DNA of 64,000 nucleotides from Escherichia phage vB_EcoM_G37-3 (MK327941.1); one strand, 5' to 3'; shown: positions 3,763 through 54,386, counted from the first letter of the stretch. Program-made: numbers and translations. Notes: a model not told the origin generated them from the letters alone.

Positions 3763-5586
3763 TTATGACGCCATCCATGCCTTCCTCATGTCTGAATCTT
3801 CGCTATAGAGCAAATCGAATAGCTCTTTATAGTTTTCCGGTAACGTGATGATCTCCATGACAGGATCGTTGATCACGCGATGATAATCTGATTCTGTGAG
3901 CGATGCTAAACCTTTGATATATCGAATGTTGTAACCTTTGATATTATCTCGGTCGTTCTCGAAATCTTCTAGGTCATAATACCATCGAACATCATCACCT
4001 TTCTTTGGTTCCGCAATGATAATAGGTGTTTTGATAAACCGGATTCGTCCATCTTCGAACAATTCAGGCCAACGTGCAAAGAAAGAGATCAGACTAGGTT
4101 TAATAGACCCGATCCCGTCAGTATCAGCGTCGGTCATAATCGCAATATTTTTGTATTGCATAACTTCCAATGCATCAACACCAAATTGCAAGCCAGTGAT
4201 CGCCATGATGTTAAAAATTTCGGCGTTCTTAACGATCTTTGCCTCCGGTTGTTCCCACGTTGTAAGAGTTTTGCCTCGCAACGGGAAACCTCCATGTAAA
4301 TCTTGATCACGTACAGAGATCAGATAGTTGATCGCGGAATCACCTTCCGTCAAAAACAGGGTAGTTTCTGCGTCAGTTCCAATAAGGTTAGCTTTAACGT
4401 GTTTTGCCACCTTAGCCCGTTTCGCTGCCTTTGCTGCCTTAGTCGCTGCCGCTTTATCTGCTGCCTCTTTGCGTGCCAGGACTACAGCAATAATAGGCAT
4501 GATAATGTTTTCTTTCTTAGCAATGACTTTAGCCAGCTTTTTAAAATCAAGATCAATATGACGCTTGATATCACCAGTCGGGTTAGTCAAGCGTTCTTTT
4601 GTCTGTGAATCAAAACGAAGGTTAGGCAATTCACGAACAATAAGAATACAGGTCAATCCAGACTTAACCGCAGCTTTAGTAACATCAACCTTATATTCTT
4701 TCTTGATTCGTTTTACAATCTCTTCACAAAGATCATCTGTCACATAATCAACGTGTGTTCCCCCGTTTTTGGTAAACAGACCGTTAGCAAAGGATACTGA
4801 TTTAAAACCTTCTCCCTCGACCGCAGGAACTAGGGCAAGTGAAAAGTTTTTATCTTCAATGACAAACGGATCATCATTGTATAGTTTAGCATAATCCTTG
4901 AACTTGCTGGTTATCTTTTTGCCATTAAACTTAAACGTGATCTTAGGAAAGATTACACTCAATGAATACATTCGATCGCAAATCACATCTGAAATTTCTT
5001 GTGACATGATCATACCTTCAAAATGATCGAAATCGGGGCAGAACGTAACCTTAGTTCCTTTCAGTTTTGACGGCTTAGATGACCAGCTAATATTTTCTGC
5101 ACCATTGGTACATTGAACGGTCAGTTCATTCTCTCCGTCACACGTCACACCAGTAAACCAGGACGAGAAAAATGATGTGAGCGCGCTTCCGATCCCATTC
5201 ATACCCATAGTAACACGATTTGTATCATCAAAGTTAGACCCTGCTTTAGCTCGTGTCCATGCAGCAACTGGTTGTGGAATCTGTTTCCCTTCTGGCGTCG
5301 TAACAATATGTTGCGGAATACCGCGACCATTATCTGTTACTGACACAATGTTATCTTTTATATCCACACTAATAACATTAGCGTACTCAAAATTCGTGCG
5401 GATCGCCTCGTCTACAGAGTTGTCGATAATTTCATCAATAATTTTAACTAGACCAGGAACATATGACACTTTGGTCCATTTTCCAAATAGGAAACGATTA
5501 TGTGATTCATAAGTCGTTGACCCGATGTACATTGAAGGTCTCTTAAGACAGTGAGCGCGATCATCTAACAGTAAAAATTCACTCAT
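3763..5586 (-). CDS. 39: DNA topoisomerase II large subunit gp39, unsplit (covers T4 gp39 plus gp60)
   Basis: 607-aa ORF; GHKL ATPase motifs IIDNSVDE, DNGRGIP, GGTHVDY, TOPRIM-like LFLTEGDSA; T4 has this split into genes 39 and 60. Confidence 0.9.
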   Translation of the reverse strand: MSEFLLLDDRAHCLKRPSMYIGSTTYESHNRFLFGKWTKVSYVPGLVKIIDEIIDNSVDEAIRTNFEYANVISVDIKDNIVSVTDNGRGIPQHIVTTPEGKQIPQPVAAWTRAKAGSNFDDTNRVTMGMNGIGSALTSFFSSWFTGVTCDGENELTVQCTNGAENISWSSKPSKLKGTKVTFCPDFDHFEGMIMSQEISDVICDRMYSLSVIFPKITFKFNGKKITSKFKDYAKLYNDDPFVIEDKNFSLALVPAVEGEGFKSVSFANGLFTKNGGTHVDYVTDDLCEEIVKRIKKEYKVDVTKAAVKSGLTCILIVRELPNLRFDSQTKERLTNPTGDIKRHIDLDFKKLAKVIAKKENIIMPIIAVVLARKEAADKAAATKAAKAAKRAKVAKHVKANLIGTDAETTLFLTEGDSAINYLISVRDQDLHGGFPLRGKTLTTWEQPEAKIVKNAEIFNIMAITGLQFGVDALEVMQYKNIAIMTDADTDGIGSIKPSLISFFARWPELFEDGRIRFIKTPIIIAEPKKGDDVRWYYDLEDFENDRDNIKGYNIRYIKGLASLTESDYHRVINDPVMEIITLPENYKELFDLLYSEDSDMRKAWMAS

Positions 5587-46918: not shown

Positions 46919-47253
46919 TTGTAACCCTCCTCTGAAAGCACATCCCAGATCGTTGCGTCAAGATGCATTAAATTCCACATAATAGAGTCATAACTACCGA
47001 AGCCAGAAGTAAAAATTACATCACACTGGCGATATGTCTTATGAAAATCGGTGGCTGTCTCTGCATCAATCGGCATATCGTCACCGGAAAGCACCAGACA
47101 TTTAAGAATCATAACTCTGTTAGCCGTTGGCGCTTGCTTAGTCTTTTCAGCATATTTTTCGATGATCCGTTTTGCCTTTTCTTCTTTGATACGTCCAGAC
47201 CAAATCCGGTTTCGGTATTGATTCATAATAATTTCAATCACATCATTTTGCAT
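46915..47253 (-). CDS. hypothetical protein (112 aa)
   Basis: ORF with overlap to neighbours. Confidence 0.45.
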   Translation of the reverse strand: MQNDVIEIIMNQYRNRIWSGRIKEEKAKRIIEKYAEKTKQAPTANRVMILKCLVLSGDDMPIDAETATDFHKTYRQCDVIFTSGFGSYDSIMWNLMHLDATIWDVLSEEGYK

Positions 47254-47452
47254 TCTTCACGGTCTCCATAATTGTTTTGTAAGCCAGCTTAAGATGATCA
47301 CCGAAAAACTTTGCAGTGTTACCCTTCGGATCGCGGAGCATGGTTTCTACGATCTCATCGGCAGTAACAATTTCTCCTTTCTTTGCTGCATGTTCTACCA
47401 TATACTTCAAAGTTTCTTCGGAAGCAAGTGCTGCGGCTACTGGATTAATCAT
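47243..47452 (-). CDS. hypothetical protein (69 aa)
   Basis: AAAGGAGAACCAAA leader after an early promoter. Confidence 0.45.
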   Translation of the reverse strand: MINPVAAALASEETLKYMVEHAAKKGEIVTADEIVETMLRDPKGNTAKFFGDHLKLAYKTIMETVKNAK

Positions 47453-51332: not shown

Positions 51333-51755
51333 TTATTGGTCTACCTTCAAAACAACCGCCGACATTTTACCCGCCAGTCGTTTTGGATTCTCTATAATCA
51401 TTCGGCAGCATAGACCGTGATATGGCTTACCCTCTTCGATTAGATCTACTGTCATCCCGATCCACATGTTACCGTCAGTAATTTCTAATCGATTCGGTCG
51501 GTCTTCCATTTTCAGGAAGTCGAAGATCTCCGGCAAACGAGTTTCTATCTTATTGAATAGTTCCATTGTCTTATGTTCATCGATATGACGATCGGTTAGA
51601 CGGTCGATCATATGCGGACTAAAGCGAATGAAAATATACTCACCATAACCATCATTCAAGCACTTTTCTTTGATCTTCGCATTGGTTTTGCGCATTTCGG
51701 TTTCGAAGAATCTACGCAGCTTACTACGGCGAACATGTACGTTAATTGTTTCCAT
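51333..51755 (-). CDS. hypothetical protein (140 aa)
   Basis: Internal ATG at 51755 behind AAGGA RBS. Confidence 0.45.
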   Translation of the reverse strand: METINVHVRRSKLRRFFETEMRKTNAKIKEKCLNDGYGEYIFIRFSPHMIDRLTDRHIDEHKTMELFNKIETRLPEIFDFLKMEDRPNRLEITDGNMWIGMTVDLIEEGKPYHGLCCRMIIENPKRLAGKMSAVVLKVDQ

Positions 51756-51759
51756 TTTA

Positions 51760-52095
51760 TTATCCTTTCTTAAACAAATTGCGAATCCAGTATACAAACG
51801 GGATTTCTTTAAACTTGAACTTGTCAATAGTTAATTCTTTAGTAGCAAGATGAATACCATAAGCATCATGTGTCACGATATGCCATTTTCTATAGTCCAA
51901 ATGTGAACAACCGTCTGGATCTAGGTTAATAAGAGTTTCTCGCTCACTAGGATTATTTTTCCACAATTTTGTAATAGGATCGCACATAATTCGACCTAGC
52001 GTACCATGAATAATCTCACAACGGTAAAGTTTTCCAGCAGTGAGATAGGCGCACCCGTCATAGTCTGTATAAACAAACACTTCTTTAACACTCAT
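51760..52095 (-). CDS. small protein, GCSHL-motif tandem paralog A
   Basis: DPDGCSHLDYRKWHIV; AAGGAGTATTAAA leader after an early promoter. Confidence 0.45.
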   Translation of the reverse strand: MSVKEVFVYTDYDGCAYLTAGKLYRCEIIHGTLGRIMCDPITKLWKNNPSERETLINLDPDGCSHLDYRKWHIVTHDAYGIHLATKELTIDKFKFKEIPFVYWIRNLFKKG

Positions 52096-52123
52096 TTTAA
52101 TACTCCTTTGTTTCGATGGGGGT

Positions 52124-52152
52124 ATATTACTACCCCCGTTTTGTTGTGTCAA
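52124..52152 (-). promoter_or_regulatory. early promoter (PeSL-type) TTGACA-N17-TAATAT
   Basis: -10 inside GGGGGTA/TACCCCC inverted repeat; approximate. Confidence 0.5.
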
Positions 52153-52398
52153 CTACTTTTTCAAGATTTTTTTAATTGCGTTCCAAAGACCTTTATTCTC
52201 AGGTTGTTTTGGTTCTTCGATCAGTGTCCAGGTTCGACCGTCTAAGTGTGCACAATTTTTAAGACAAATAAAAATCTGGTGTCCTTTATCATCACGGATA
52301 TAACCACTATTCGCAAATCTTTCATGTGGTGTATATTCATACAGTGTATTTGGTGTAATATACTTGCGGTTACTATAAGGTGTCATCACATACATCAT
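52153..52398 (-). CDS. small protein, GCSHL-motif tandem paralog B
   Basis: ICLKNCAHLDGRTWTLI; ATGA overlap with paralog C. Confidence 0.45.
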   Translation of the reverse strand: MMYVMTPYSNRKYITPNTLYEYTPHERFANSGYIRDDKGHQIFICLKNCAHLDGRTWTLIEEPKQPENKGLWNAIKKILKK

Positions 52399-52589
52399 GG
52401 TACTAACTCCCATTTATCACCGCGAAGATGAGAACATCCACCATCAAGAAGGATCGTAATACGAAACCCCGCATCATCTTCAATATACCCGATAGTCGGT
52501 GGATTTTCGTCGTCTCGTGTCGGGGTAAAATCATACATCTTTCCGGGCGTAATATCTTGTCCTTTATTACTATTGGTATAAACTTGCAT
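52395..52589 (-). CDS. small protein, GCSHL-motif tandem paralog C
   Basis: LLDGGCSHLRGDKWELV; GGAGA RBS. Confidence 0.45.
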   Translation of the reverse strand: MQVYTNSNKGQDITPGKMYDFTPTRDDENPPTIGYIEDDAGFRITILLDGGCSHLRGDKWELVP

Positions 52590-52610
52590 TTTCTTAATCT
52601 CCTATATTAA

Positions 52611-53309
52611 CTAACCACGGGTATAGTGTTCCAGAACAACGGTCAGATGAATATATTCTAATAAATCCTTCCAAAAGTCAACATCTGGTTCTTCCGGCAT
52701 ACCGTTTTTCTTTGCCTCTTCACGCGCGAGTTTAACACGCTCGTAGAGATCTTTCAATTCTTCCCGCACATTATCAAAGGTTCTTTCTCCTAACTTACAC
52801 GCTAAAATAGAAGAACGTCGCGCGAGCGGGAATTGTAGATCACCAGTTTGATAGATTTCAAGTAGCTGATAACCAACACGCAGAGCATGAGAAAGATCTT
52901 TCCAGTTACTGAAATACTTTTCAGATTTTGCTACCTGCTTTTTGAGATAACCAGACAAACCCCACATCCCAACATGATAGAATTTATCGCGATGTGTTCT
53001 GATGTATTCCCATTCTCTGGAGGATTCAATCAACATGTTACTAGGCGCGTGCACCATGTCAATAGCGCCGATATCGCCTTTACATGCCAGATTGATAAAC
53101 CGTTTTAGACTGAACATATTAACGTCAATATCGTCTTTGGTGTTCTTGATACCTTGACCGCTAGTGCTTTGGTCATAGTGTTCTTTCATCGATCCTAAGA
53201 TAATTTCTTTCGCAGTCGGAACAAAGATACCACGATAATCTTTATCTGAATTTTCAGTATCAAGGCCGTATAAGTGAGATCCGAAGACCATTTTAACCAT
53301 AGTATGCAT
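52611..53309 (-). CDS. Pol-beta superfamily nucleotidyltransferase, function unknown
   Basis: 232 aa; NTase signature GS-x9-DxD (FGSHLYGLDTENSDKDY) and downstream DIDV; helical C-terminal half; GAGGG RBS. Confidence 0.6.
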   Translation of the reverse strand: MHTMVKMVFGSHLYGLDTENSDKDYRGIFVPTAKEIILGSMKEHYDQSTSGQGIKNTKDDIDVNMFSLKRFINLACKGDIGAIDMVHAPSNMLIESSREWEYIRTHRDKFYHVGMWGLSGYLKKQVAKSEKYFSNWKDLSHALRVGYQLLEIYQTGDLQFPLARRSSILACKLGERTFDNVREELKDLYERVKLAREEAKKNGMPEEPDVDFWKDLLEYIHLTVVLEHYTRG

Positions 53310-53327: not shown

Positions 53328-53921
53328 TTAAACGTATTCAGCGACAACATTGTGTTTAAAATTACCACTTCTTTTTGGATTTGGATTTTTCAATCGACTA
53401 TGTATTAAATTTTTGTTATATCCGGTTGCTTTAGACGCTTCTCCAATACTTTGATAAACAACACCATCAACACGAATCGGACGAGACTTATTAAACAGTT
53501 TATTCAATCCGGTATCATATGCATGGTTTTGGTTTTCTTGTCTTGTTGCGATCTCAAGATTCCAAACACAATTACAAGATTTTACCCCACTTTTATGATT
53601 AATTTCAAGCCCTTCACAATCACCTATAAAGTGTTCAGCGACTAGTCTATGAATATAGCGATATTTCTTAGTTTCCCCGTCATGCAAGCATACATTATAA
53701 TAACCATCACCAGCGCGTTTAGGTCGGAGTAGTTTACCTTTAACACGTTTTATAGTAGGGAACTCACCAAATTGATTTCGCTGGATAAAAGGAATCTCTC
53801 GGTCAAGTGAACGGATTCGACCATAGTTAGATACTTGATAAAACCCCCCATAGCCCTTAATCTGCTTCCATATCTCGGGGATTTCAACACCATCAATAAC
53901 AACAAGTTTAAGTTCTTCCAT
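53328..53921 (-). CDS. HNH homing endonuclease (NUMOD4-like plus HNH_3-type)
   Basis: YQVSNYGRIRS, HRLVAEHF...NHKSG...NLEIATRQENQNH; GAGGTG RBS. Confidence 0.85.
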   Translation of the reverse strand: MEELKLVVIDGVEIPEIWKQIKGYGGFYQVSNYGRIRSLDREIPFIQRNQFGEFPTIKRVKGKLLRPKRAGDGYYNVCLHDGETKKYRYIHRLVAEHFIGDCEGLEINHKSGVKSCNCVWNLEIATRQENQNHAYDTGLNKLFNKSRPIRVDGVVYQSIGEASKATGYNKNLIHSRLKNPNPKRSGNFKHNVVAEYV

Positions 53922-53969: not shown

Positions 53970-54386
53970 TTACATAGATTCCGTAAAGGTACGGGTGATA
54001 ATATCAAGTTGCTGTTCGCGTGTCAAGGCATTGAAGCGGGTAGCATAACCACTGATTCGAATTGTAAGCTGCGGGTACTTTTCAGGATTTTCTAACGCAT
54101 CAAGAAGAGTCTCCCGACGCAGTACGTTCGCGTTTAGGTGCATTCCCCCTTCGATAATCGGTTTACCCGCATCGATTTCGCAAATTCGAAAATTGGTCTT
54201 ATGCAGCGCCAGCGAATCGACGTCTTCTGCGGTGATCACATGGTCTTCTGCGAAAGTTTTACTAACAATTACTTTAGCGCCGATCAGTGCTTTCGGTTCG
54301 GATACCAGAATCATAGGCGCGAAGTGTCCACCAATAATAGTACCTTTATGCTCACCTTTCATGATTTGAATTGCTTTAAATTCCAT
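53970..54386 (-). CDS. autonomous glycyl radical cofactor (GrcA/YfiD-like; T4 Y06I-type)
   Basis: C-terminal [15 protein letters not shown]...[37 protein letters not shown] is near-identical to the GrcA glycyl radical domain. Confidence 0.85.

Follow-up and report, generated by a model that had tools for sequence, protein, structure and literature searches.

Gp54 of phage Bas11 (PDB 9axb; PF25180; phrog_7421) is a non-essential protein of about 65-66 residues that directly activates the CapRelSJ46 defense protein and whose native function is unknown (PMC11578894). It is also the nearest solved structure to the products of three adjacent genes, here called p64, p81, and p111 after their lengths in residues, that we analyzed in a 64,000-nucleotide stretch (hereafter, the window) of Escherichia phage vB_EcoM_G37-3 (MK327941.1). 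Like Gp54, the three are small phage proteins, predicted to form SH3-like beta-barrels, that are encoded among small hypothetical genes. However, the Gp54 barrel is six-stranded, with an extra C-terminal strand (PMC11578894), whereas the predicted barrel of the trio family is five-stranded, and Gp54 lacks the T-x-G-K-x-Y and D-D-x-G motifs of this family. Homology to the Gp54-Bas11 family is not established, given a faint local profile similarity with an hhalign probability of 30% over 27 columns (strand 3, strand 4, C-x-H, and W), family hidden Markov model (HMM) scores of 4-5 bits (4.2-4.8 bits for Bas10 gp57, a near-identical Gp54 homolog), and the different Pfam and PHROG assignments. PF25180 matched none of the three proteins, the family consensus, or 92 relatives. 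Gp54 is thus an analog and not a demonstrated relative. True members of the trio family are carried elsewhere by Bas11-related phages (i.e., bas10_0081, bas09_0072, and bas09_0082).

The trio itself is already present in databases, as direct sequence members of phrog_6261 and phrog_15978 and as ORF095 to ORF097 of Phi1/RB49, each of which is annotated in Phi1 as "hypothetical protein"; it belongs to the small phage accessory barrels. Neither the PHROG entries nor those of Phi1/RB49 describe a function, fold, or family, and no model is available in Pfam or NCBIfam. Eukaryote-type SH3, KOW, Tudor, and PhnA-like barrels have the same topology as that predicted for the family, and the most variable loop of the family, between strands 2 and 3, was taken as the n-Src position of SH3 domains. 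A canonical SH3 domain was rejected for lack of any Pfam SH3 match, and a Cys/His metal mini-domain with three or four invariant ligands was rejected because each domain has one Cys and one His. DUF6501 (PF20111) gave sub-threshold matches in 7 of the 92 relatives (best E value, 0.0017); neither DUF6501 nor DUF7244 (PF23896) was matched by the three proteins or the family consensus.

About 58 Krischvirus genomes (RB49, Phi1, GEC-3S, JSE, and others) match the region analyzed at 94-98% identity, and the proteins of the window are 90-100% identical to annotated hypothetical proteins of Krischvirus genomes. By sequence, the window is from a Krischvirus, that is, an RB49/Phi1-like, T4-type coliphage. 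The initial annotation had described three consecutive open reading frames of 111, 81, and 64 codons, and these were recovered (Table 1). It had also named p111 as the first gene; since the trio lies on the minus strand, p111 is the last of the three to be transcribed. The order of transcription is vs.6/GrcA-like, HNH, nrdC.11, p64, p81, p111, regB, and vs.1. The translational coupling by ATGA overlaps proposed for the trio holds at the p64/p81 junction and fails at the p81/p111 junction, where a 57-nt spacer was found instead. The early promoter proposed for p111 was found as a TTGACA-17-TAATAT sequence motif that is also annotated at the corresponding place in GEC-3S.

Table 1. Features of the p64-p81-p111 locus (positions counted from the first nucleotide of the window; barrels, promoter, and stem-loop are predictions)
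Feature	Position	Strand	Remarks
vs.6/GrcA-like gene	53970-54386	minus	First in listed transcription order
HNH homing endonuclease gene	53328-53921	minus	Between vs.6/GrcA-like gene and nrdC.11
nrdC.11/RlaP-type nucleotidyltransferase gene	52611-53309	minus	Upstream neighbor, 21 nt from p64; PF10127 recorded on orthologs
GGAG Shine-Dalgarno of p64	52599-52602	minus	Potential RegB cleavage motif, from sequence
p64 gene	52395-52589	minus	64 aa; Phi1 ORF097; bare barrel domain, pI 4.4
p64 stop/p81 start overlap	52395-52398		ATGA
p81 gene	52153-52398	minus	81 aa; Phi1 ORF096
p81 barrel		minus	aa 1-61
p81 tail	52156-52215	minus	aa 62-81; basic, amphipathic
Sigma70-like early-type promoter	52124-52152	minus	TTGACA-17-TAATAT; for p111 and regB; consensus scan 10/12
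G5/C5 stem-loop	52118-52137	minus	GGGGGUA-GUAAUA-UACCCCC; RNA fold -15.3 kcal/mol, z = -2.7
GGAG Shine-Dalgarno of p111	52103-52106	minus	Potential RegB cleavage motif, as for p64
p111 gene	51760-52095	minus	111 aa; Phi1 ORF095
p111 barrel with inserted loop	51865-52089		aa ~3-77
p111 C-terminal tail	51763-51864		aa 78-111
GGAU Shine-Dalgarno of regB	51762-51765	minus	Inside last p111 codons (AAG AAA GGA TAA; K-K-G-stop)
regB, site-specific RNA endonuclease gene	51333-51755	minus	Downstream neighbor; annotated in Phi1 and GEC-3S; PF10715 recorded on orthologs

Two features of the surrounding annotation differ between genomes. The HNH/NUMOD4 homing endonuclease gene is annotated in the window, pEJ01, JK32, and the contig L017, and its presence in FL04 and MIZ4/5 was inferred from 100% query coverage; Phi1, GEC-3S, ECD7, and L018 lack it, as RB49 probably does (86% coverage). 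On sequence comparison, this pattern suggests a mobile element that is polymorphic for presence or absence. The p111 ortholog is labeled "endoribonuclease" or "Endoribonuclease RegB" in JK32 (L011, 1557-1895), MK327932, MT478991, and MW748999, a label that appears to have been carried over from the adjoining regB.

The three reading frames are established as real genes under purifying selection in their minus-strand frames, given pN/pS values across six Krischvirus genomes of 0.10 for p111, 0.27 for p81, and 0.22 for p64. The corresponding values for the neighbors were 0.08 (regB) and 0.01 (nrdC.11), and the pN of p64 and p81 was 5-80 times that of regB and nrdC.11. Sequence comparisons indicate that the three proteins are homologous, distantly related members of one family. 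Smith-Waterman alignments scored above the background of 2,000 shuffles for p81/p64 (z = 18.9; score reached in 0/2,000), p111/p64 (z = 6.4; 0/2,000), and p111/p81 (z = 3.6; 15/2,000), the last being weak when taken alone. Profile searches agreed: phrog_6261 matched p111 (E = 1e-37; aa 3-76), p64 (E = 2e-29), and p81 (E = 6e-6); phrog_15978 matched p81 (E = 7e-61) and also p64; and a family HMM built from 124 members, with p111 and its ortholog excluded, recovered p81 (E = 1e-28), p64 (E = 4e-26), and p111 (E = 2.4e-16). The same HMM detected no fourth open reading frame with an E value of <0.1 in all six frames of the window. These alignments and HMM searches sustain the single family put forward by the initial annotation. 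Its Tyr-rich N terminus followed by a common motif is also recognizable, the motif now reading C-[SA]-H-L-x(2-3)-[KRT]-W-x-[LI]-[VI].

Word-indexed searching returned close orthologs only. An exhaustive profile search against 1.84 billion cluster representatives returned 166 at an E value of ≤1e-3, most of them 58-70 aa long, and when an alignment of 92 sequences was used as the query in a second search, 137 proteins were recovered, none of which had a Pfam domain. All of the latter are unnamed or "hypothetical," and the view of the trio as a small family with no assigned function stands. The longer contigs bearing members are 40-165 kb, which is phage-like in size. Using tblastn with the consensus, we found members in Krischvirus (three places per genome), Vibrio myophages, Drexlerviridae including Bas09, Pseudomonas Flaumdravirus, the 42-kb Shigella phage phiSD1, and a Maribacter phage, with no match in Tequatrovirus. 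Judged from these searches, the family is a widespread, phage-restricted group of mini-proteins of ~60-65 residues. Bas09 PaulSarasin (L003) carries members at 656-922 and 3977-4189, and Bas10 IsaakIselin (L006) carries one at 47187-47381; weak members adjoin strong ones in the small-gene early region of Drexlerviridae (bas09_0074, bas09_0083, and bas10_0082).

The family signature begins with V-x-T-x-Y-x-G-C-x-Y-[IL]-T-x-G-K-x-Y and continues as I-x-D-D-x-G ... I ... C-[AS]-H-L-x-G-x-x-W-x-[IV]-[VI]. Over 235 sequences (p64 numbering), the most conserved positions are Y19 (100%), W60 (98%), K17 (96%), T14 (95%), D39 (91%), G16 (87%), C52 (86%; Ser in 12%), L55 (85%), and H54 (84%; Phe, Tyr, or Trp instead in about 11%), and the D38-D39 pair is conserved. 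Positions 22-33 have an entropy near 4 bits, close to maximally variable, and contain indels. All 10 signature residues examined (T14, G16, K17, Y19, D39, G41, C52, H54, L55, and W60) are present in p64. p81 has N at G16 and T at K17 and keeps the others, and p111 retains the T, G, K, Y, C, H, L, and W, with its D-D-x-G hairpin diverged.

No Pfam, NCBIfam, or PADLOC model was matched above threshold by the three proteins, the consensus of the family, or 92 relatives. SH3 HMMs found no match among the three proteins and 92 relatives, in which there were single sub-threshold matches to Tudor_5 and MSSS. Matches to FosA and cyclophilin fell far below the cutoff and were taken as chance, and those to an RpoN subunit and DPP4 in a PDB-sequence profile search (E > 0.1) were at chance level. 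Among longer, multidomain relatives, P0058 has a sub-threshold Tad2-like/DUF2829 segment; the other fused segments match only PHROGs of unknown function. A search of the literature on RB49 anti-defense turned up no mention of these genes, nor did one by PHROG and Pfam identifier.

The predicted fold of each member is an SH3-like beta-barrel of five strands. AlphaFold2 (AF2) confidently modeled p64 as an all-beta barrel (pLDDT, 85) and p111 as a barrel (pLDDT, ~90) with a tail (aa 86-111) of pLDDT under 50. The predicted barrel has five strands, the last of which is preceded by a 3-10 turn, and fold searches matched SH3 domains as well as DNA- and RNA-binding SH3-like barrels (the integrase C-terminal domain, NusG/Spt5 KOW, and Hpy99I). 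The fold matches in BFVD were uncharacterized phage proteins throughout, one of them a DUF7244 protein. In the AF2 models, the C-[SA]-H-L motif lies on a short 3-10 helix ahead of the last strand.

The predicted promoter for p111 and regB begins directly after the p81 stop codon and is conserved in the related contigs L016 and L017; no promoter motif was found for p64 and p81 themselves. The G5/C5 hairpin, which holds the -10 box in its loop and has no U-tract after it, is also conserved in both contigs, and regB of the more distant T4-like contig L014 has a similar hairpin in front of it. The hairpin might modulate promoter activity or stabilize the upstream mRNA at its 3' end. All three genes have putative ribosome-binding sites containing GGAG. 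RegB is specific for GGAG in the translation initiation regions of early mRNAs, and RB49 regB uses GGAU as its ribosome-binding site (PMC3014915). Because the GGAU of regB lies within the end of p111, autoregulatory cleavage by RegB would fall in the p111 reading frame.

The reading that we favor, with a probability of roughly 45%, is that the trio are early protein-binding modules directed against host targets, for takeover or counterdefense, in which the loops would confer specificity and two of the members would be tail-anchored. p64 and p81 would probably be cotranscribed with nrdC.11 in the first minutes of infection, and p111 would be expressed early with regB from its own promoter; RegB, by cutting the GGAG ribosome-binding sites, would later shut off all three. 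The barrel would act as a cytoplasmic protein-binding module, with the conserved core as a stable scaffold and the variable loops setting target specificity, and its targets would be host proteins involved in host takeover or counterdefense. p81 and p111 would each use the cationic, amphipathic helix at the C terminus to attach the barrel to the membrane or to a second partner. Such barrels may themselves be detected by host defense sensors, as is Gp54 of Bas11. Alternatively, the conserved polar residues T14, K17, and D39 could form a small-ligand or catalytic site.

The position of the genes raises another explanation, namely, a role alongside the adjacent RNA enzymes, in which the barrels would, for example, regulate RegB or nrdC.11 in the manner of an antitoxin, inhibit one of them, or serve as its cofactor. 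RegB is reported to have a RelE/YoeB-like fold. Krischvirus shares the order nrdC.11-member(s)-regB with the distant T4-like contig, which encodes a 78-aa member, RlaP/nrdC.11, a single 64-aa member, the hairpin, and regB in succession and so has one member between RlaP and regB and another upstream of RlaP. The p111 stop codon is 4 nt from the regB start, with the regB ribosome-binding site inside p111, and one Bas09 member overlaps the start of a polynucleotide kinase gene. However, linkage to regB was found in T4-like phages only: around members from other groups (Drexlerviridae, a Vibrio phage, Flaumdravirus, phiSD1, and metagenomic phages), neither regB nor RlaP occurs in the sequence examined, mostly 3-4 kb on either side. 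Gene neighborhoods at 11 other loci were heterogeneous, with no recurring partner and no clue to a pathway. Moreover, T4 has regB, yet its syntenic slot holds vs.3, vs.4, and vs.5, which encode unrelated helical proteins, and the acidity of most barrels (see below) argues against direct RNA binding. We therefore consider a partnership with the RNA enzymes unlikely.

Binding to nucleic acid in its own right, by a Tudor-, chromo-, or integrase-C-terminal-like barrel that would modulate host or phage DNA or transcription early in infection, is suggested by the DNA- and RNA-binding barrels among the fold matches (integrase C-terminal domain, NusG/Spt5 KOW, and Hpy99I) and by the basic full-length p81 and p111 (pI 9.3 and 8.3). 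Against it, this basic charge comes from the C-terminal tails alone, the barrels having pI values of 7.8 (p81) and 6.0 (p111). Across the family, the barrels are mostly acidic (median pI, 4.7; pI below 6 in 84% of members), which makes direct binding of nucleic acids unlikely, and there is no conserved basic patch apart from K17. The chance that this explanation is correct appears slim.

In the favored reading, the tails of p81 and p111 would be docking helices. That of p81 is GLWNAIKKILKK, and p111 ends in FVYWIRNLFKKG; their terminal segments (LWNAIKKILKK and FVYWIRNLFKK) are cationic and strongly amphipathic. Both tails resemble a cationic C-terminal helix of high hydrophobic moment (muH), with a tail pI of about 10 and a muH of 0.69 for p81 and 0.60 for p111 (about 0.6-0.8 for the terminal segments). 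The reference peptides, the amphipathic helices by which MinD and FtsA are targeted to the membrane through their C termini, gave 0.27-0.57. The p81 and p111 tails share with them a C-terminal position, a cationic charge, and amphipathicity, without homology. The p81-type tail is kept in the distant members P0015 and P0017. Selection at the protein level on the p111 tail is not demonstrable, since its DNA is also nearly identical between lineages, and its conservation may be only the mark of a recombination boundary next to regB.

The number of copies at the nrdC.11-regB locus ranges in T4-like phages from one before regB (L014) through two (L016) to three (Krischvirus). To this extent, the "expanding" family of the initial annotation is apt, but a recent local burst is not what the relationships show. 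Among the matches of p64, p81 ranked 24th and p111 ranked 186th. By sequence, members in unrelated phages are at least as close to the paralogs as these are to one another and, as the three are not each other's nearest relatives, the trio represents either long-diverged members of the family or separate acquisitions.

Several alleles document how the locus changes. In the metagenomic contig L016 (ENA scaffold_28569, 45-296), p64 and p81 are fused into an 83-aa protein (P0009) whose N-terminal half is p64 and whose C-terminal half is JK32-type p81, joined at G-Y-I-K-D-D-K-G-Y; this chimera is evidence of recombination between tandem paralogs. In a divergent Krischvirus lineage (L017/L018), the genes encode 64, 81/80, and 100 aa, and the third keeps the last 18 residues of p111. 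The p111 barrel has 32-58% nucleotide identity to that of L017, against 82-98% in most 60-nt windows of the flanks.

Sharp local divergence was also seen in two other settings. The p81 allele of JK32 (L011, 1957-2202) carries many amino acid changes, including a change of the motif His to Tyr, whereas the flanking proteins differ from those of the window at few residues and the 4.2-kb region averages 94.9% nucleotide identity; this far greater divergence of p81 points to allele replacement at p81 alone. In an unrelated lineage (metagenomic phage contigs L023-L025; ~2501-2758), members lie in a small-gene island flanked by a Mu-F-like head gene and the portal gene. Their alleles have an identical, basic N-terminal 40 aa and an identical C-terminal 8 aa (GTWYHPIR), with unrelated middles of ~30 aa that are 47% identical in nucleotide sequence versus about 90% in the flanks.

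The barrels, and one loop especially, are established as hot spots of divergence despite purifying selection. This hyperdivergence could reflect relaxed constraint combined with mosaic recombination and not an arms race. A further reading, in which the genes are dispensable leftovers, that is, selfish or neutral "filler" reading frames of a hyperplastic region, would fit the unrelated genes in the T4 slot, the natural p64/p81 fusion that leaves two genes, and the non-essentiality in the laboratory of the structurally nearest protein, Gp54 of Bas11 (PMC11578894). We regard it as improbable in view of the pN/pS values of 0.10-0.27 and the persistence of the family across very different phage groups. 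In addition, the trio is fixed in the Krischvirus records found (58/58), with p111 full-length in all 58 records with a match and p64 at least 80% covered in 60 of 64 matching records.

Finally, a metal- or redox-dependent mini-protein, in which Cys-x-His, possibly with Asp-Asp, would bind a metal or supply a reactive thiol, is highly improbable: C52, H54, and the D38-D39 pair are indeed among the best-conserved features, but each domain has a single conserved Cys and a single conserved His, these are replaced by Ser and by aromatic residues at the frequencies given above, the p81 allele of JK32 reads C-A-Y-L, and the 3-10 helix bearing the motif in the AF2 models is a structural element of the SH3 fold. 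Metal binding by C-x-H was rejected on this substitution pattern, and the same Cys-to-Ser and His-to-aromatic replacements make the motif look structural, with a role in packing, and neither metal-binding nor catalytic.

Extended from the trio to the whole family, the favored reading of target-binding early modules becomes more speculative, and we hold the extension to be rather doubtful. The family would then be a stable, phage-wide "mini-binder" scaffold in which the loop between strands 2 and 3 is diversified, tracking rapidly evolving host targets such as defense proteins. Diversification would proceed by allele replacement and recombination between paralogs, several divergent tandem copies would broaden the range of targets, and the barrels could also serve as molecular patterns seen by CapRel-like sensors.

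The factors of host takeover and anti-defense that have yet to be discovered reside mainly among the small early proteins of phages. Here, three "hypothetical proteins" are placed in a defined family, for which we give a signature, a predicted fold, a size of 166 representative clusters, and the location of a hypervariable loop; its members occur in experimentally tractable phages (i.e., RB49/Phi1 and the BASEL phages Bas09 and Bas10). If the barrels are not target-specific binders, they would constitute an ordinary accessory gene family; if they do bind specific targets, the family would represent many natural inhibitors or defense triggers.
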